Shown here piece after piece: positions 5,704 to 61,318 of a stretch of DNA of 64,000 nucleotides (positions within the stretch are counted from its first letter, which is position 1; each line of letters begins with the position of its first letter). The stretch covers positions 9,796,001 to 9,860,000 of the forward strand of contig OX597814.1 of assembly GCA_951406725.2 (NCBI GenBank), written 5' to 3'. The translations under genes were made by a program, and so were the position numbers. The stretch comes from Octopus vulgaris. Taxonomy: Eukaryota. The notes beneath the pieces are model-generated. The model worked only from the letters and a program-made list of their open reading frames with translations, did not search any database and had not been told where the DNA came from.

Positions 5704-5789
5704 GTCTGTATACTTGTTCTATATATATATAAATATATGCATACATACATACATACATACATACATGCATACATACATACATACATATG

Positions 5790-6005
5790 TACATACCTAC
5801 ATCTATATGTATATATACATGCATATATGAGTACAGGACACCCCCCAAAAACGTCGAACACAATGAAAAACGCAAATAAAAAACAAAAACATGGAAACGA
5901 ACTTTTTTTTCAAACAACGAAAACACAGAGTACAAGACATACAACACAACGAATATTCCCCTTCTTCAGTTGTCCCTGTTTCGTCTAATCTTCGTTTCGA
6001 AGGTA
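5790..6005 (-). mobile_element. Dispersed ~230-bp repeat family H carrying GAAAC...CTGANGA motifs (copy 1 of 4)
   Basis: Homologous to 27497-27720, 49880-50137 and 54465-54710 (shared cttcgaaac...ctga[a/t]gaagggg...gtcctgtac...tatatgcatgtatata). Confidence 0.75.
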
Positions 6006-6007
6006 TA

Positions 6008-6060
<53 letters not shown>

Positions 6061-6160
6061 TAATCCAAACAAGAAAACAAAAACAAAAAAAAAGCAACAA
6101 CGCAAGGACGTGGAACAAATAAAGTATTATTGGACGCTCAGGAAAGAAGGGAAGAAGGAG

Positions 6161-6196
6161 TGTTTGACTTTCGAGCGGAGCTCTTCGTCGGAAACA
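6161..6196 (-). ncRNA. Minimal type I hammerhead ribozyme-like motif (degenerate)
   Basis: Minus strand: TGTTT-CCGACGA-A-GAGC-tcc-GCTC-GAAA-GTC-AAACA; stem I 5 bp, stem II 4 bp, GUC site; U4>C change and stem III nearly absent. Confidence 0.6.
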
Positions 6197-6267
6197 TAGG
6201 AGAAGGAAAGATCCCGAGAAGAGAAGACAGGGGAAAACTCGCCAGTGATACAGACGAGGTCACATAC

Positions 6268-6306
<39 letters not shown>

Positions 6307-6390
6307 ATTTGGAGGGCAAGCTACTATGTGGTCGGCCGTATACTAGAAGTAGATCACCTACGATCAAACTATCTCCTTCATTATCTAAAT

Positions 6391-6458
<68 letters not shown>

Positions 6459-6488
6459 TGTTTGTCTATCTGTCTGTGTATTTAGTAC

Positions 6489-6544
<56 letters not shown>

Positions 6545-6739
6545 AAACACACATACACCACTTCTACACACCACTTTCCTTGGATAATGGAACTGCAACT
6601 ATAACATCTTTTATATGTTTTTATTTTTATTTCTACATGCATTCTCCTATTTCCCTATATCCTCCTTATTTCCTTCCTTTTCCAATATACCTCCTGATAT
6701 TGAACTTTACTATTTCCTTCTATTTAACCATCTCACATC

Positions 6740-6787
6740 GTCTCTGATGAAGGGGTGTCACTAGTATCCCCGAAACATCTATAAGAC
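6740..6787 (+). ncRNA. Minimal type I hammerhead ribozyme-like motif
   Basis: GTCT-CTGATGA-A-GGGG...CCCC-GAAAC-ATCT-ATA-AGAC; stem I gtct/agac, stem II gggg/cccc, intact CUGAUGA and GAAA. Confidence 0.65.
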
Positions 6788-7004
6788 TAACTTTCTCTTT
6801 ATAAATGTCCTGAAAATTCCACGCAACCTTGGCTTTGTTGTTTCATTTTAATTAACACACACACACAAACACACACACGTACATACATACATACATACAT
6901 ACATACATACATACATACATACATACATACATACATACATACATACACACACAAACATACACACACACACACACACACAGACACAGACACACACACACAC
7001 ACAC

Positions 7005-7058
<54 letters not shown>

Positions 7059-7251
7059 TAATACTAAGCAATTAAGGGTTTAGCAACGAATTGCCTTACC
7101 ACACACCGAATTTAGAAATAGCAGTCAAAGAGATTATAGCTATTTCTTCTACTAAAAGGGAGATCACAGTAAAGGCACAGCATTTGAAAGGCAAACACAA
7201 ACAGGTAAGAAAGAATGAATTAACGGCAATCTATCATACAGTTTTAAGTCA

Positions 7252-7343
7252 CCTACGGACGTACGTTTCGAGATCAAGTCTTAGGAAAGCATAAGAATTA
7301 GATAACTCTACCTTACCCAGACTTCTTCTTTCATCAGCGCAGG
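7252..7343 (-). ncRNA. Type I hammerhead ribozyme motif within a ~580-bp non-coding module (~7060-7640)
   Basis: Minus strand: CCTGCG-CTGATGA-AAGAAGAAGTCT...AGACTTGATCTC-GAAAC-GTAC-GTC-CGTAGG; 6-bp stem I, palindromic stem III ACGTACGT, GUC triplet. Confidence 0.75.
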
Positions 7344-7649
7344 ATACAAACAATCATGAATGATTGAATATTGAATTTTGAGATACTAGAAGGCACCAAC
7401 TCAACTCAGTATCAGAGCGAGCTAGAAGCCACAGCTAGTATCCCCAAATTCAAAGTATGAATGAAAGCTTGTGTCACCAGTCCCTTCCCACCCGCGTGTA
7501 GCCAAGACAAAGTGCTGTGGTCATTTACTGGAATGAATATGGTTATGAGTAACAATGAAGGGTGAAATTAATTAATTTGGAATAATTATCAATTACACCA
7601 AGTAGTCTTCGGCATGTAAAAGCCTAATTCGAGGAAAAAATATATATTT

Positions 7650-7982: not shown

Positions 7983-9244
7983 CACAAACACGCAGGAAGT
8001 AAATAGACACCTTTAATTTTTGAAAATTTCTGCTCTGAGTGTCTTAATATGTTTTCAGCAGTGTAGAATTTACAATGTAATTATTCTTTTTCCTTCCAGG
8101 TGCCATTATATCAAACATTTGCGAAGAGTAACCATGCCACGCACAAAAAATTCCGCAGAACTATCAGATTTTCAAAGAAGTCGTATTGTTGGGCAATCTG
8201 CATCTGGTCTTAGCCAGCGAAAAATTGCTGAAAATCTTCAAATTCTTCTCGCTACTGGTAACAGAATTATAGTGCAATTCAAAAGCCAAGGAAAAGAATC
8301 AACTGATGCTCGTCCCGGCCGACCTGGACCTTCGGAAAGGAAGCGTCGCTGTTTGAAGAGAATTGTGGAAAACGAACCCCTTTCGAAGGTTTCTGACATT
8401 ACAAAACAGCTAGAAGTTAGTCCCAAGAACATGTGTCACATATCTGCATAAGCTTGCGTATTACGGATGAGCAGCTAGAAGAAAACCTCTCCTTCAACCA
8501 ATTAATATCATGAACGCAAAGAAATGGGCTAAGGAGTTGTCAGAAAAATCCAGTTCATTTTGGGATAGAGTGATTTTCTCAGATGAATCCAGATTTGCAT
8601 TATTTTCAGACAGTGGACATATTTGGGTCTGGAGGCTTTCCAATCAAGAATTTGATTTGAAACGACTCCAACCAACTTTGAAACATGGCAGTATTTCTGT
8701 AATGGTATCTGGAGCTGTCACCAGCAATGGTCGTACTGAGTGATCGAATGTGGTGGAATCATAAACTCTGAAAAATACATCGAAATACTTAAGCAAGGAC
8801 TACTTCCAATGTATTCACACGATAACATGACAAAAAAATGAGTTTTTATTCATGGAAGCTGGGGCTCCATGCCACACAGCGAAAAGGAATCAACAATGGC
8901 TGGCTGAAAATGGGATCAAAAAGCTTCCTTGGCCGAGCCAATCTCCTGACATAAACCCAATTGAAAATCTTTGGAGCATACTAGATAGAGCTATACGAAA
9001 AACATCAACAGAAACCTAAATCTAAAGATGAATTGTTGCGTGAAAAATGGGCAGAAATCTCACAAGAGACAATCACAGAGATTATCAGTTAAATGTCAAA
9101 AAGAGTTTCTGAATTAAAAACTGCAAATGGAATGTCAAGTAAAGTATGTAGTCCTACTTATCGATTATATTTCAATTGTTCGCTTTGTGTATTGAATAAA
9201 AGATTTTGAAAATTAAAGGTGTCTATTTACTTCCTGCATGTCTG

Positions 9245-24414: not shown

Positions 24415-25650
24415 AGTTCAAATTCCGCCGAGGTCGACTTTGTCTTTTATCCTTGGGGCTCGATAAAATAAGTGCCAATCAAGCACTGAGGACAACTTAC
24501 TTGAAATCATTAATATTATTATTAGGGCAGCGAGCTAGCGAAATTGTTACCTCACCGGACAAAATGCTGGACAGCATTTCGTCTACTTTTATGCTCTAGG
24601 TTCAAATTACGCTGAGGTTAACTTTGATTTTCATCCTTTCGGGGTCGATAAATTAAGTCGATGTAATCCATTTTCTCTCCTTCAATATTTCAGGCCTTCT
24701 GCTTATAGTGGAAAGTAGAAAGGATTGCTTTAATTATGAAAGTGGCGATAAATTAAATACCAGTTGCATACTGGGGTCGATCTAATTGATTGCCCCCCCC
24801 CCCTCACCCAAAATTTCGGGCCTTGTGCCTAGAGTAGAAAAGATTATTATGAAGGTGGCGAGCTGGCAGAGTCGTTAGCACGCTGGGCGAAATGCTTAGC
24901 CGTATTTCGTCTGCCGCTACGTTCTGAGTTCAAATTCCGCCGAGGTCGACTTTGCCTTTCATCCTTTCGGGGGTCGATTAAATAAGTACCAGCTATGCAC
25001 TGGGGTCAATGTAATCGACTTAATCCGTTTGACTGTCCTTGTTTGTCCCCTGTGTGTTTAGCCCCTTGTGGGTAGCAAAGAAATATGTATTTCGTCTGCT
25101 GCCACATTCTCAGTTCAAATTCCGCCGAGGTCGACTTTGCTTTTCATCCTTCCGGGGTCGATTAAATAAGTACCTGTTACGCACTGGGGTCGATATAATC
25201 GACTTAACCCGTTTGTCTGTCCTTGTTTGTCCTCTCCGTGTTTAGCCCGTTGTGGGTAGTAAAGAAATAGGTATTTCGTCTGCTGCCACATTCTGAGTTC
25301 AAATTCCGCCGAGGTCGACTTTGCCTTTCATCGTTTCGGGGTCGATAAAATAAGTATCAGTCGAGCACTGGGTCGAGGTTATCGACTTACACCCTCCCAA
25401 ATGTTGCTGGCTTCGTGTTAAAATATGAAACCATTACTATTAAGGTGGCGAAATGGCAGAATCGTTCGCACGCCGGACATGATGCTTAGCATTTCGGCTG
25501 GCTTTACTTTCTGAGTTCAAATATCGCCGAGGTCAAATTTGCTTTTTCATCCTTTTGCAGTGATGAAATAAATATCAGTCAATTATGGAGACTATGCCAT
25601 CGACTAACTCTCTAACTCAAAATTGTTGGCCCTCTACCTAAACCAGAAGC
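24415..25650 (+). mobile_element. Cluster of about 6-7 SINE family B units, including a head-to-tail trimer (24855-25435)
   Basis: Repeated gttcaaattccgccgaggtcgactttg; units restart at gtatttcgtctg at 24902, 25087 and 25271. Confidence 0.9.
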
Positions 25651-27783: not shown

Positions 27784-28025
27784 TATATTTGCCATTTGAA
27801 TTTTTTTAGTCATCCTTCCCGTCTTAGTCATCCTTCCCGATGATAGGTCAATACCTTGAAACTCGAGTCCGTGTGTATCATAAGTTGAAGACGGGAAGGA
27901 TGACTTCCCTTCACAAATACTGATAGGGCACAGAAAGTGTGTCTATACCCAGCTGGAGGAGGTGTCTTCCTGGGGCTACAAACTACAGTAGCATCCACCC
28001 TTAGGGGTTAGCCATATTCAAATGG

Positions 28026-46432: not shown

Positions 46433-47617
46433 CAGGTCATCCCATAAATTCTGTTCAAATTTTGAATAAAGAAAACAAGTGATGAAATGTTATATGTAAT
46501 TGAAATTTAATTATCACTGTATTTTCTCTGATTATCTAAGACTTCCTTCCATCTATCTACAAGCTTTTTTATCCTGGCTTGCGAAAGTTATGTCCCCCAA
46601 ATGGTTTTGTAAACTACGAAACAAATGGTAGTCTGAAGGAGCATGGTCGGGAAAATAAGGCGGATGAGGAATTTTTTCCAAGCCAAGCTCTTCGATCTTC
46701 TGTGATGTGATCTTTGCATTGTGGGGGCGCGCATTGTCCTGGTGAAACATCACTTTTCGATTCACTAAAGCAGGTCTTTTTTTCTTCAAGGCTTGGTTCA
46801 AACGCTCTAATTGTTGACTTGAGCATTGATTGTTGCATTAGTTGGTAACAATTCAAGGTGAATTACTCCTTTGCAATCCCACCAGATACAGAGAAGAACC
46901 TTTTTCCCATGAAGTTCCCTTCTCGGTTGTGAGTGAGCTATTTCCTTTTTACCAAGCCACTGTTTACGACGTTTAACATTTCGATAGAAGATTTATTTTT
47001 CGTCACCAGTCACAAGTCTATCCAAAAAGGGTGTAATGAGTTCGCGAGAATGGAGAGGAGAGGGTTTGCGGTTACTTTCGGACAATTCACAAGGCACCCA
47101 TTTTCCAAGTTTAGGAACCTTTCCAAGTTCTTGAAGATGAAGATGAACAGTTGTATGGTTTAAACTAAGCTTTATTGCCAAATCTTCAACTGATAATGCA
47201 GGATTTTCTTCAAGTAATGCCTCGAAGAGCTTATCATCAAACTCAACTGTACGTCCTGTTCAAAGCTGAAATCTCCACTTCTGAATTTTGCAAACCATCT
47301 TCTGCAAGTTCTTTCATTCAAGCATACTTTCCCATAAATTGAGTGTATGTTTCGAGTCGCTTCGGCTGCAGTGTTTCCTTTTTTGTACTCATAAAACATT
47401 ATGTGCCTTAAATGCTCTTTGGATACTTTCATGTTAGAAAGGGCTTTAATCAAAGAAATTTTAATTCTATTATTCTGTAAAATTGTATTTAATTAGTTTA
47501 GATGTACACAAATTCATAAAAATAATTTTAATTCCATTAGACATTCTAAAATACTATTAAATTTCATTCAATTTAAAAAAAAAGGTAAAATCAGACAGAA
47601 CTTATGGGATGACTTGA
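46432..47617 (-). mobile_element. Mariner DNA transposon (1186 bp), inactive
   Basis: TIRs tcaggtcatcccataaattctgt / acagaacttatgggatgacttga, TA at 46430-46431 and 47618-47619. Confidence 0.93.
46530..47432 (-). pseudogene. Mariner DD34D transposase pseudogene
   Basis: MKVSKEHLRHIMFYEYKKG, WVPCEL, LVTGDEK, HQDNARPH, PYFPDHAPSDYHLF motifs split over several frames. Confidence 0.93.
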
Positions 47618-47649: not shown

Positions 47650-48745
47650 AGATGGTTGTGGCGTCTTTTTCTACTTTAATTTCTTTCGGGATAATATTGA
47701 AAAGAGCGGGACCATTTGCAGTGAAAATATTGTGTTGCAATGTTCTTATGCGATATGATCTCGACCTTTGTAGGGGACGCATTGAACGGGGTCCTAGTCT
47801 TGGGTAAATTGTAAACATAATACTGATATCATTTGGATAATATTGGTGGAATATTTTCTACATGATGCAAATAATGTATCGCTTACGGCGGCGTTGTAGA
47901 GAATAGAGTTTCAGCTGTTTAAGTCGAGCCCAATAATCAAGTCCTGTCATGCCATTTATTTTTTTAGTGATTGATCTTTGTGGCGCTTCGATCCTCATTA
48001 TGTCTTGTTTTTTTTTTTTGTAGGAGGACCACAGTGGGCAGTAGTATTCGAGGTGAAGCCTAGCGAATGTGGAGAAGAGAAAGATGATGATTTCATGATC
48101 CCTAGATTGAAAAGTTCTGAGGATCCATGAGAACATTCTGCGGCCAACATCAACTTTTTTTTTTTGATGCGCACACTTCAGCTAAGGTTGCTGTCGAAAG
48201 TTACACCTAAGTCTCTGATATTATCCGACAGTGCAAGTAGGTCTCCCAACAGTAGTGTAATGCTTGTTTGAGTGTACCCTCTTTTCCAAAGTGGATGAGC
48301 TCAATTTTTCTTTTGGTTCAGCTGCATATGGTTTTTTTTTTTTGTTTTTTTTTTGTGTGTCCACTAGGTTACTGCACATGGGTCCGATTGAAGCATCTTA
48401 CGATCATATTCTCCTTTAATGAATTTCTGAAGCTTAGAGTCATCTGCAAATATTTTGATGGTTTTATGTTCAATGGAATCTGCAATGTCGTTGATATAGA
48501 CAATAAAAAAAAGTGGAGTCAGCACAGTAACCTGCGGGGACTCCGCTGATGACTTTAGCTGGACTTTTGAGTGGATGCCATCAACCACAACATGCTGGGT
48601 CCTGTTTGTTAGGAAATACTTAATCCATTGAAGTAGCTTTCCACCGACTCCAGCGTTGGATAGTTTCCTTAACAATATATTGTGATCGACTCTGTCAAAG
48701 AACTTTCTAAAATCACGGTGTATGACATCGGCGTTGGACCCCCTT
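47650..48745 (-). mobile_element. CR1-clade LINE reverse transcriptase 3' fragment (pseudogene)
   Basis: FDRVDH..LRKL..GVGGKLLQWIKYFLTNRTQHVVVDG, PQ.TVL.PLFFIVYINDI, FADDSK, LEY.CPLWS, LKLYSLQRRR. Confidence 0.9.
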
Positions 48746-49403: not shown

Positions 49404-49759
49404 GTTGAGTATATAAACAGTTTGGCTGCTTGTTTTTCAGTCTGCGGAGAAATAGCTAAAATTTGTACTGTTCATAATTATGCCATATATTACATATTTA
49501 TTATATCATACCTTGATACTGTGTGGACTAAGATCCCCGTTGACAGGCCACTGGTATGAGTGTTAAACACTTTCGGTATGCAAATTAGGTATTCCTTCAT
49601 AGAATAACTGCTGCATTTTTAGAGTATATAAACAGAATGATGTAGACGCCTCTGATGAGAACTCAATAAGGTTCAAAAATCGATTAGGATTGTTCATAAT
49701 TTTTTTTCAGTCTGTGGAGAAATAGCTAAAATTTGTCCTGTCTATGATTATACCATATG

Positions 49760-49801
<42 letters not shown>

Positions 49802-49879: not shown

Positions 49880-50137
49880 ATAAATAAAATATATGCATAC
49901 ATACATACATATATGTACGTACCTACATCTACATGTGTATATACATGCATATATAAATATATATACGTGAATACAGGACACCACAAGTAGACGTAGAACT
50001 CAACGAGAAACGAAAACGGAAAAACAAGCGTGGAACAGACCATTTTTTTACAACGAAAAACAGAGTACAAGACAAACTACACAAGGAAAAATCCCCTTCA
50101 TCAGCTGTCCCTAGTTCAACTCCAGCGTGTTTCGAAC
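49880..50137 (-). mobile_element. Repeat family H copy 3
   Basis: Minus strand ttcgaaacacgc...agggacagctgatgaaggggattttt...gtgtcctgta. Confidence 0.75.
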
Positions 50138-52920: not shown

Positions 52921-53552
52921 TATGTTAGACTTTTGCTTTATGTCTGTACAAGTTGGCTCCAAGTCTCACCCAGAGACCTCAAGAGACAACAGGTTGGAAG
53001 TTCTGTGCCATATATTTTTTTTTTTTTTTTGGTGTTGTACTAGTGAATGTCTAATACATAAAAATAAAAAATAAATAAATAAATTAAAAAAAACAAATAA
53101 AAAGATAAAGAATTAAAAAAATTAAAATAAAAAATAAACAAAAATAAATAGACAAAAATGTTTGTTTTAAACCTTGGGATTACATAGAGAGTATTTTGCG
53201 TAGGATATGAGCAGTTCCCATGAGCACTATCTTTTGAATTTCTGCCATTTTGGGGTTTCCTGGTATCTGAGTTAGGTAGCAATCAGTCCCTTTCGCTATC
53301 ATTCCTAGGGCACCTATGACAACAGGTATTGTTTTAGTCTTCAGCTTCCACATTTTGCTGATTTCTATTTCAAGATCTTTATATTTGCTCAGTTTTTGGT
53401 AGGTCTTGACAGATACGTTTATATCGATTGGGACAGTCATATCAATGAGGAGGCATGTTCTTTGTCTGAAGTCTTTCAATATAATGTCTGGCCTATTTGC
53501 ATCTATCTTCCTGTCAGTTTGAATGGTGAAGTTCCAGAGGAGTGAGATGTGG

Positions 53553-53554
<2 letters not shown>
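52921..53554 (-). mobile_element. 5'-truncated Dong/R4-like RLE retrotransposon inserted in (TAA)n
   Basis: Open frame LLWNFTIQTDRKIDANRPDIILKD...LLIDMTVP...KLSKYKDL...PVVIGALG...IVLMGTAHILRKILSM* (PD..D..K endonuclease), 3' UTR, TAA arrays at both ends. Confidence 0.9.
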
Positions 53555-53620
<66 letters not shown>

Positions 53621-54464
53621 TATGAACTGCTATGGATTAATTTTTGTTCATATAGATCACCGCCATTTTCCTAAGATTCTGGACCTTACCTGAGCATACT
53701 GACAATTTCTGCTTCATCAGCTGACAAGCCAAGAAAAGTTTTAAAATATTCAAATTATGCAAATTGAATAGGCTCTCAATACCATTAAAAATATTAGTAT
53801 TTAAAAAAATTCGGTGGTGAGTGGCGGGTAAATATTAAGATATGATGTGTGGTGTTCGACAGCAATAAATTTGATAGTGTGATGTTCGTAAATGCAATAT
53901 CCGTAACCGAAATAGTTTAATAGATTTAAGAACATTTTTCAAAACACTAATACAGATATTCAAGTTAAAGGACCTCACCGAGACAGACAAAAACAAAGTA
54001 AATACATTAATAAAAAACTAGATAAATTCATCAGATCGATCACGTGCAAATCCTAGAAATTTCATAGGAGTACAAGTAAAAAGAATGGACAGATGTGTGT
54101 TATAAACATACTGTAAAGCAAAAGGAAAGCTACCGGTTAGGGTAAGTAAATGTGAATCAATTATGGGAAGCTGTTCATAGTTACCTGGTCTGCTAGAGAT
54201 AATAACGAAATCTCCCAAAAATTAAGTCTTTCGTTTTTTACCAAGTTCTCTCGCGCGAAACAGATAGCTATATGTTACGAATCATTAAATTTAATAAATA
54301 AATATCTATTCGGGGCATTTTATTTACTATCTTGAATACTTTATTGGATAGAGGTCGTTAGATTTCATTTGTAAGCTTTCATACACACATATAAGTACAC
54401 ACACACACACACATATATATAGTTATAAATATACACACATATATATATACATATATATATATAT

Positions 54465-54708
54465 CCTTCGAAACGTTTAGTAGATGAAACCTTAGCGACT
54501 GAAGAAGGGGATTTTTCGTTGTGCTTATTGTCTTGTATCTCTCTTTTTTTTGCTTGTTTTGTCCCTTGGTTTGTGTCTATGTTTTTCGTCTCTCTATGTG
54601 TTCGACGTCTTTTTGGTGTCCTGTACACATATATGCGTGTATATGTACATGTAGAGGTAGGTACGTACATATATGTTTATATATATGCATATGTTCTATT
54701 TTATTAAC

Positions 54709-57933: not shown

Positions 57934-57963
57934 CATCAGGGAATAAAGCCCTGTACGTATTCC

Positions 57964-57999
57964 CTGATGAGAGGTAAACAAGCCATGAAACGGCCAGTT
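57964..57999 (+). ncRNA. Degenerate hammerhead-like motif
   Basis: CTGATGA-GAGG-taaacaag-CCAT-GAAAC-GGCCA-GTT; stems imperfect; preceded by a 12-bp IR (57934-57945/57958-57969). Confidence 0.4.
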
Positions 58000-58578
58000 A
58001 GTAGACTCCCTCACGTTTTCAGTACATCAATGTGCAATGGCATAGAGAGAATGTGTTTACATTTGTATTTCCTCCACAGCGAGGCTTGTTTTTGTTGTTG
58101 TTGTTGTTATTGTTATGTGTGTCTCTGTGTTTGTGTGTGTGTGTACGTGTGTGTGACTCTCCTGTCGTAGACGACAAATGAAGATGCCACAATCCTATGC
58201 TGAATAACTGCCACAGATGATTTGTTTTAAAGTAATCGAATGTTTAAGCTGTACATTAGCTCACTCCCTCCATCAGATCGACGTTACCTGAACAGGTGCT
58301 CAGTGCATCTCACGTCAGGTAACGAAGTGATCACAGAGCAACGCGAGATGAAGTGTTTTGCTCAAGAATTCACGATCTCGTCAATGTAAGTGCAGAACCC
58401 TAACCACTAAATATAGATAAATATGAGCTGGGGCTCATCTAAGTGTGGTATGTAATTAGTGAGAGTGCAAAAGTTTTCAGTAGCTAGTCGGTAATAGGGC
58501 TTGAAATTTTAATAAAATAAAAAAATGTCCCCAGAAAGGCCAGGTTTCAAATGTACTACACATAGAAAATATAGAATA

Positions 58579-60463: not shown

Positions 60464-60856
60464 GAGTGTCAGTGTGGTAAGTAGCCTACTTACCAACCAC
60501 ATGGTTCAGGCTTCAGTCACACTACGTGGCACCTTGGGCAGGTGTCTTCTACTATAGCCTCGGGCCGACCAAAGCCTTGTGAGTGGATTTGGTAAACGGA
60601 AACTGAAAGAGCCTGCCGTATATATGTATATGTATATATATGTGTGTGTGTGTTTGTGTGTGTTTGTCCCCACCAACATCGCTTGACAACCGATGCTGGT
60701 ATGTTTACGTCCCCGTAAATTAGCGGTTCGGCAAAAGAGACCGATAGAATAAGTACTAGGCTTACAAAGAATAAGTCCTGGGGTCGATTTGCTCGACTAA
60801 AGGCGGTGCTCCAGCATGGCCACAGTCAAATGACTGAAACAAGTAAAAGAGTAAAA
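60464..60856 (+). mobile_element. SINE family A
   Basis: Head through aagtaaaagagtaaaa tail. Confidence 0.9.
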
Positions 60857-60900
60857 AAAATGAGATATAACTGTATTCCTGTACAAATAGGTACAGACAT

Positions 60901-61318
60901 TACTCTTTTTTACTCTTTTACTTGTTTCAGTCATTTGACTGAGGCCATGCTGGAGCACCGCCTTTAATCGAGCAACTCGACCCCGGGACTTATTCTTTTT
61001 GTAAGCCCAGTACTTATTCTATCGGTCTCTTTTGCCGAACCGCTAGGTAACGGGGATATAAACACACCAGCATCGGTTGTCAAGCAATGCTAGAGGGACA
61101 AACACAGACACACAAACACGCACGCATATATATATATATATATATACATATATACGACAGGCTTCTTTCAGTTTCCGTCTACCAAATCCACTCACAAGGC
61201 TTTGGTCGGCTCGAGGCTATTGTAGAAGACACTTGCCCAAGGTGCCACGCAGTGGGACTGAAGCCGGAACCATGTGGCTGGTAGACAAGATACTTACCAC
61301 ACAGCCACTCCTGCGCCT
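60901..61318 (-). mobile_element. SINE family A
   Basis: Full-length copy, tail-to-tail with 60464-60856. Confidence 0.92.

Follow-up and report, generated by a model that had tools for sequence, protein, structure and literature searches.

Stacked retroelement ends in octopus microsatellite and a predicted five-helix, non-circularly permuted hammerhead ribozyme in one of their families

At positions 5790–7640 of the window, by which we mean the whole 64-kb stretch of Octopus vulgaris DNA under study, there are four repeat modules (M1–M4), each bounded by microsatellite and each bearing core boxes of the hammerhead ribozyme. Do these modules constitute a single ribozyme-based system, as an earlier note on this DNA had it, or are they a set of unrelated insertions, and what kind of hammerhead does each of them encode? 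The core boxes and the microsatellite edges described in that note are all present, and the modules are indeed mutually unrelated, with no sequence similarity between any of them. The motifs are also much denser than in dinucleotide-shuffled sequence: a strict scanner for type I hammerheads recovers two in the cluster as against a mean of 0.005 in 1,000 shuffles, and three in the whole window as against 0.16, while missing the one in M4 because its stem II begins with an A–C. A search of Rfam (E≤1) gave no hammerhead family among the best 150 of 346 matches. Of the hammerheads claimed for all four modules, those of M2, M3 and M4 stand as type I folds (Table 1), whereas the boxes of M1 (5958–6003) allow none of the type I, II or III folds because in it GAAAC precedes CUGAAGA and there is no cleavage strand.

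Table 1. Positions of the repeat modules, their hammerhead parts and the adjoining microsatellite in the window
Feature	Positions	Strand	Description
M1	5725..6005	-	5'-truncated F1 copy; 3' boundary approximate
M1 block C	5958..5976	-	GGGACAA (strand of stem I), CUGAAGA (core), AGGGG (strand of helix IV)
M1 block G	5990..6003	-	stem II 3' strand CCUUC, GAAA, stem III strand ACGAA (ACGCG in most of the subfamily)
(TA)n array	6004..6056	.	between M1 5' end and M2 3' end
M2	6057..6270	-	5'-truncated repeat end
M2 minimal type I hammerhead	6161..6196	-	core CCGACGA (U4C), stem II GAGC/GCUC; predicted cut 6166/6165
M3	6545..6855	+	3' end of old Penelope-like element
M3 type I hammerhead	6740..6787	+	predicted cut 6783/6784
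(CA)n/(TACA)n and (TA)n arrays	6855..7056	.	take M3 and M4 3' ends, tail to tail
M4	7052..7638	-	one 586-bp monomer of young non-coding tandem family
M4 type I hammerhead	7252..7343	-	long stem II, palindromic stem III ACGUACGU; predicted cut 7258/7257
Second F1 copy	50081..50136	-	another subfamily, likewise truncated at block G
Third F1 copy	54463..54522	+	young subfamily, likewise truncated at block G

The behavior of the modules elsewhere in the genome bears directly on the first part of the question. Each has about 1,800–2,500 first-look candidates in the genome, 40 of which were scored; among 108 other sites, 99 hold a single module, eight hold two and one holds three. That M1–M4 are one composite, co-mobilized ribozyme system is hence highly improbable: they do lie within 1.9 kb with only microsatellite between them, but the full set recurs at none of these 108 sites, and the modules differ in age and strand without any shared sequence (the identity between copies is 97–99% for M4, 94–96% for M2, 87–91% for M1 and 85–90% for M3). 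In the cluster, the ends of four unrelated repeats came to be stacked by chance at a common microsatellite target; the window, on contig C1, is rich in microsatellite. An 80-bp non-repetitive island (6309–6390) sits between two TA arrays within the cluster. Both the cluster and three of its four ribozymes (M2–M4) are known biology.

M2 and M3 show no difference of kind from the minimal hammerheads of Penelope pseudo-LTRs, so far as these are described in the available part of PMC4209133: they have a base bulged before stem II, a short palindromic stem III that would need a dimer, and are found for the most part as truncated single copies. In M2, 30/30 copies have their 3' end in (TA)n, 24 of them with an intact hammerhead; the stem III of the family is the palindrome ACGU, with the window copy lacking its C. 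In M3, the stem III of the family, ACAGCUGU, has become ACAUCUAU in the window copy through two changes that damage the palindrome, and the hammerhead is fully intact in 15/30 copies. A linkage to GIY-YIG ORFs, for which the earlier note proposed a test, is probable for M3, where 5/30 copies reach a broken C-terminal GIY-YIG-like endonuclease frame 1.2–1.5 kb upstream, but no ORF was found for M2 within the ~0.8 kb of upstream sequence shared by its longer copies. The endonuclease-like frame of M3 aligns with that of an element in L034 (E 1e-11), whose own Pfam GIY-YIG match is below the cut-off; the RT region is not reached. Because its long copies run into this GIY-YIG remnant, M3 is, judging by its sequence, probably a 5'-truncated autonomous Penelope-like element. 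The modules are non-coding within the window, although M3 would represent the 3' end of an element that codes for protein; and the proposed mobilization in trans holds for the non-autonomous M4 but would not for M3. The broader idea of many ribozyme-bearing elements favoring (TA)n is borne out, with the genome harboring many Penelope-type repeats that bear a hammerhead and terminate in (TA)n.

M4 is a non-LTR retrozyme in terms of the sequence definition of such elements in metazoans (PMC7229834; Li, Clavereau and Pollet 2026, 10.64898/2026.07.22.740005; both as far as their available text extends), i.e., tandem non-coding units with a complete type I hammerhead each. It has no stop-free frame longer than 72 codons, is non-autonomous and must be copied in trans. 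Its best copies are 97–99% identical, and after merging eight overlapping ones among 30 loci we counted 22 distinct sites, of which three are monomers, 18 have head-to-tail units and 10 an inversion. Arrays of at least two whole units occur at 3/22 sites, with five units at one of them, and the outer ends at the 22 sites fall at two fixed points. Among 39 whole hammerheads, eight have a G10.1–C11.1 pair and 31, including the window copy, an A–C at these positions; the window hammerhead has a folding-energy z of -2.3. M4 resembles the metazoan non-LTR retrozymes of these two papers in having a non-coding tandem unit with one type I hammerhead each, and in occurring both as dispersed monomers and arrays; it differs from those quoted there in its unit of 586 bp, as against 150–450 bp, and in its long stem II. 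The footprint of Penelope-like elements set out in the part of PMC8557442 at hand, namely partial tandems, inverted 5' copies, a tail and a microsatellite target, is present in M4 and also in the family of M1.

The further motifs of the earlier note fared unevenly. The one at 27837 belongs to a young type I hammerhead family (27837–27960; 98–99% identity; 1,710 candidates; core CCGAUGA; stem I CACACG/CGUGUG), but an inversion joint truncates the window copy at its core. Those at 49652 (49580–49760) and 57964 (57945–58090) derive from old type I-like families with broken cores, the former having lost G12 in most copies and the latter having five matches only. The one at 383 (320–430) is, by eye, just the GAAAC half of the boxes in a near-perfect fold-back of two inverted 3' ends of the element that is whole in L034. 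Beyond these, the window contains what looks like the start of a Tc1/mariner transposase (fragment at 8017–8451, +), a mariner-like piece (47172–47492, -), a LINE RT-like fragment (47858–48744, -) and a restriction-like endonuclease-like fragment (53180–53629, -). The 184-bp tandem units of a common short repeat at 2548–2914 and 24902–25394 are presumably an octopus SINE. A long perfect hairpin at 60781–60982, with a chance Rfam MIR841 match below the gathering score, is probably an inverted repeat joint.

This leaves M1, which the earlier note placed among the minimal type I hammerheads whose stem III is palindromic; instead, it appears to be the remnant of a differently wired ribozyme. It is a copy of a family, here termed F1, and begins only 7 nt downstream of where cleavage is predicted, so that the blocks X and S are missing; being truncated, it cannot fold. 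Longer copies contain a stem III strand, a NUH triplet and a stem I strand upstream of the GAAA block, with the GAAA block in turn being upstream of CUGANGA. The whole unit has the block order X, S, G, C: block X comprises a helix IV strand (CCCCU), a hairpin V and a stem II strand (GAAGG); block S a stem III strand, the NUH cleavage triplet and a stem I strand; block G CCUUC, GAAA and a stem III strand; and block C a stem I strand, CUGANGA and AGGGG. In the fold that we predict from these parts, each of stems I, II and III crosses the other two, and helices IV and V are inserted between A9 and G10.1 with joints devoid of unpaired bases. The F1 RNA is thereby predicted to form a hammerhead of five helices in a non-circularly permuted order, which would cleave the transcript at one site in every unit. 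Type I descriptors miss F1 because its ribozyme is not of type I.

F1 is an abundant family, with 4,437 exact pattern matches in the genome as against none in the reversed control; another exact pattern gave 3,108 as against none (some sites being counted twice) and a loose S-G-C pattern 11,233 as against 1,766. In the window, there are three stubs (5969, 50104 and 54499) where ~0.1 would be expected in 64 kb from 4,437 matches in 2.8 Gb, an excess that is overstated because the pattern was written to include those three. Units follow each other at about 785–900 nt overall (832–898 nt in 10/14 spacings; ~785–790 in the subfamily of M1), inverted copies are present, and copies of the young subfamily are 97–99% alike between sites. 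No ORF of its own was found in 160 locus-strands, overlapping ones included, 101 of them with 1.4 kb and 20 with 5 kb upstream. In organization, F1 is like the non-LTR retrozymes of PMC7229834 and of Li, Clavereau and Pollet 2026, but it is unlike them in that its ribozyme is not of type I. Assembled contigs of four RNA runs cover the F1 unit, though contigs cannot show ends, strand or circles.

Parallels to this layout occur in the Naiads, Penelope-like elements that have been reported as lacking canonical hammerheads and yet bearing unexplained 'HHR_core' and 'HHR_half_core' boxes, with eight half cores marked (PMC8557442, in the part available). We read by eye the last ~330 nt of 44 of the 54 consensus records of that source, without choosing them by motif. 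The four-block layout was apparent in Naiad_Aacu and Naiad_Anas from Acropora and in Naiad_Obim and Naiad_Ovul from Octopus, and stems I and III in the S-G-C order in Naiad-2_Movir (Morbakka) and Naiad_Esco (Euprymna). The nematode Naiads Nbra-1, -2, -3, Hcon, Hpol and Asuum show by eye another arrangement, type CSG, with three stems of 4–8 bp in all of which the letters differ between elements. Thus, 12/44 ends have either layout and 32/44 have neither in the last 330 nt. Bivalve and hemichordate Naiads, as given in the records seen from PMC8557442, have at their ends no hammerhead boxes but a different conserved motif in common, one that looks structured. The nematode ends are, by eye, like the type CSG of PMC10085705, in the accessible text of which Eckert et al. 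knew two such sequences.

The octopus Naiad end has the F1 layout, and its pattern has 498 exact matches in the genome as against one in the control. Repeats of the source genome match the published Naiad_Ovul end by eye, and it is on this match that the Naiad label of the Naiad-type copies rests; their block X comprises CCA, a hairpin and GACACC, again with joints devoid of unpaired bases. Upstream of two such copies (L309 and L332) is a frame that, going by its motifs, looks like an RT C-terminus; Pfam, pairwise BLAST and a protein search gave no match for it. The family is old because its copies are only 84–88% alike. F1 resembles the Naiads, as far as the part of PMC8557442 at hand describes them, in its (TA)n target, tails and inverted and tandem copies; it differs in having no ORF, and so none with the N-terminal GIY-YIG and C-terminal RT that mark a Naiad, and no detectable sequence similarity outside the fold. 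A third family with the four-block hammerhead layout comes from a different class of element, a non-LTR element of the restriction-like endonuclease (RLE) type (L257–L269 and L274) that has it in its 3' UTR. Here, stems I and III are present, CCCC occupies both sides of a would-be direct stem II, and the upstream strand pairs with both. Its ORF ends in a restriction-like endonuclease motif, though Pfam gave no match, and we take it to be of the HERO type; a diverged relative (L270) has kept the boxes while the stems have decayed. Hence, the four-block fold is not confined to Naiads. A literature search for a hammerhead in the RLE-type/HERO clade found none.

How well is the fold supported? In a structure-blind MAFFT alignment of 28 chosen F1 copies, the 27 pairs comprise 751 cells of which 96.3% are paired, as against 37–53% in slid controls. 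Eleven of the 27 pairs change on both sides (four in V, three in III and four in I), and the score is reached by 0/500 shuffles. Since related sequences can beat a shuffle control without any structure, it is the slid control and the comparison of the three families that carry weight. Stems I and III score at least 8/10 with their own partners in 62/70 copies, as against 139/1,902 with swapped partners and 70/3,500 when shuffled. Stems II and IV are invariant within F1, and their support comes from the three-family comparison only, with a putative stem IV of 3 bp in the Naiad-type. Scored together in a fitted manner, stems II, IV and V reach at least 12/14 in 55/71 F1, 9/13 RLE-type and 7/26 Naiad-type copies, copies with microsatellite upstream (11 F1, no RLE-type and four Naiad-type) being left out; the controls give 0/900 for between-family swaps and 10/1,100 for shuffles. 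The letters of stem II differ by family, being GAAGG/CCUUC, GGGGC/GCCCC and GACAC/GUGUC. On the core side, whole F1 copies have CUGANGA, GAAA, the A15.1–U16.1 pair (64/64 copies) and NUH flanked by stems I and III, while the window copy is without the cleavage strand. Variation is seen at N7 and H17, the tolerant positions of the hammerhead, and the invariance of the core within the genome is partly built into the search patterns. Energy folding of three copies, by a method that does not show pseudoknots, gave z of -0.5 to -1.2 and recovered hairpin V in 2/3. A kink-turn reading of the UGAUGA box was dropped, as there is by eye no opposing GA after strand IV' in any of the three families. Taken as a fold, the structure of F1 appears well supported; catalysis is predicted from it.

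The feature by which F1 departs from a hammerhead is the placement of stem II, which in the hammerhead stacks directly after A9 with no more than 1–2 inserted bases; in the best-supported fold of F1 it does not, and F1 alone allows a weak direct stem. We know of no hammerhead without a direct A9–G10.1 link, and the core may therefore not tolerate a junction there. This brings up the alternative that F1 is an ordinary three-block hammerhead of type SGC, whose stem II is formed by the GGGG after the core and the CUUC before GAAA, with block X being a separate or inhibitory structure. Indeed, we had first adopted this plain form as the best F1 fold. F1 can form such a stem (G–C, G–U, G–U, G–C with one bulged A; mean 2.9 of 4), and its S-to-G linker of ~3 nt after an extended stem I is as in Eckert et al. 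(PMC10085705, available part). However, the direct stem is impossible in the RLE-type family (mean 0.15 of 4), where CCCC faces CCCC, and weak in the Naiad-type (2.5), whereas the stem with block X scores 3.7, 3.5 and 3.4 of 4 in F1, the RLE-type and the Naiad-type, respectively; further, hairpin V covaries and abuts both strands exactly. We replaced the plain form because the RLE-type family cannot form its stem II, and it now seems unlikely to us.

The other alternative accepts the five-helix fold as real but no longer catalytic, kept as a recognition handle for the RT or as a block to decay; this too we regard as improbable. It would agree with the position of the fold 100–280 nt from the 3' end in every host and with the poor in vitro cleavage of Penelope minimal hammerheads (PMC4209133, in the part available). 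It does not account for the retention of CUGANGA, GAAA, the A15.1–U16.1 pair and the NUH triplet across unrelated hosts while all the stems change. The 5' ends of genomic copies speak to both sides. For 88 F1 copies, picked only by their sequence from the C block onward, we binned apparent 5' ends relative to the predicted cut, minus denoting 3' of it and plus upstream: there are nine at -30 to -15, 16 at -15 to -5, six at -5 to +5 and one at +5 to +15. Thus, 31/88 ends fall in -30 to +4 (28 after subtracting three internal deletions), whereas the adjoining 86 nt upstream (+5 to +90) contain 16, including several where the alignment merely stops in poly-T; and all three window copies have a 5' end of this near-cut kind. 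That pile-up fits templates beginning at the cut. It also fits RT stalling at the pseudoknot, as a non-catalytic fold would have it, because the peak sits 5–15 nt after the cut and short truncations are in any case the more frequent ones; but the near absence of ends from the 10 nt just upstream of the cut argues against a non-catalytic fold.

Returning to the catalytic five-helix fold, we advance the following mechanism for the movement of F1, with self-cleavage and the copying route being what we infer. Self-cleavage after H17 would furnish unit-length RNAs with their 5' end; (TA)n would then be nicked by a Penelope-like RT/GIY-YIG protein, which would copy the F1 RNA from its 3' end; and copying might often stop near the 5' end of the RNA, leaving stubs like the three in the window. 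The repeat ends of M1–M4 were likely inserted one by one by Penelope-like enzymes. A candidate partner exists in a very young autonomous Penelope-like family (L231, L233 and L237 on contigs C9, C2 and C10), with dozens of near-identical intact copies and two ORFs, of ~446 aa and then 784 aa, the latter combining an RT with a GIY-YIG at its C terminus. Its pseudo-LTR has its own type I hammerhead with a U3–A8 core in 11/12 fetched loci, i.e., the core variant of Penelope minimal hammerheads in the accessible part of PMC4209133 is present in an active element of the source genome. F1 is fused directly to the tail of this 784-aa element (L190) and, in L242, to a relative's cut 5' end, and these two junctions hint that F1 may be copied in trans by such enzymes. 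We considered F1 as the pseudo-LTR of this element and rejected it at 1/30, the F1 motif being absent within 1.5 kb from 29/30 copies. No sequence similarity was found between F1 units and any autonomous element tested. For the young F1 subfamilies, the enzymes now doing the copying are likely those of active elements with a C-terminal endonuclease, because the Naiads of the source genome are old. Overall, the locus is probably best explained as stacked repeat ends, three with type I folds and one a truncated F1 copy whose whole form has the five-helix hammerhead, copied in trans.

Within the published spectrum of hammerheads, as far as the available text of Eckert et al. 2023 (PMC10085705) extends, F1 is most like the type SGC: it has S, G and C in a non-circular order, crossing stems I–III, the full core and a short S-to-G linker. 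It is unlike the published examples of SGC in that stem II is drawn from a fourth block, which lies upstream and brings in two additional helices, and in that block C is interrupted, with CUGANGA not directly before a stem II strand; it is also unlike the published SGC and CSG ones in residing in an animal-genome repeat with thousands of copies. The helix 'I' of Eckert et al., which joins the outer sides of stems I and II, was not found in 69 F1 copies (3.9 bp as against 4.2 in shuffles). As for extra helices, hammerhead variants with such have been reported in the available part of PMC13725137, while that of PMC10162972 has nothing on them and that of PMC3088659 lists only small core insertions. 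In our searches of the literature on permuted and SGC hammerheads and retrotransposons, we found no report of the five-helix fold. As far as our searches reach, the wiring of F1 is the only part of these findings not already in print, and F1 would be the first case of a non-circularly permuted hammerhead from the genome of an animal.

These observations incline us, with somewhat better than even confidence, to the view that animal retrotransposons harbor a class of active scrambled hammerheads missed by standard searches, comprising the five-helix, four-block form of cephalopods, corals and an RLE-type non-LTR clade together with the type CSG of nematodes; that this class includes the missing ribozyme of the Naiads; and that the core of the hammerhead can accommodate a helical junction separating A9 from stem II. 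A scrambled predicted ribozyme likely explains why the Naiads were thought to lack one. If true, F1 would show the best-studied small ribozyme wired in a new way, with thousands of natural copies and rich covariation. The published absence of hammerheads from Naiads would also be contradicted, and dependence on self-cleavage would again be the rule for Penelope-like elements. Finally, the role of ribozymes in the life cycle of these elements would become testable, by means of a 150-nt transcript and the 5' ends of genomic copies.
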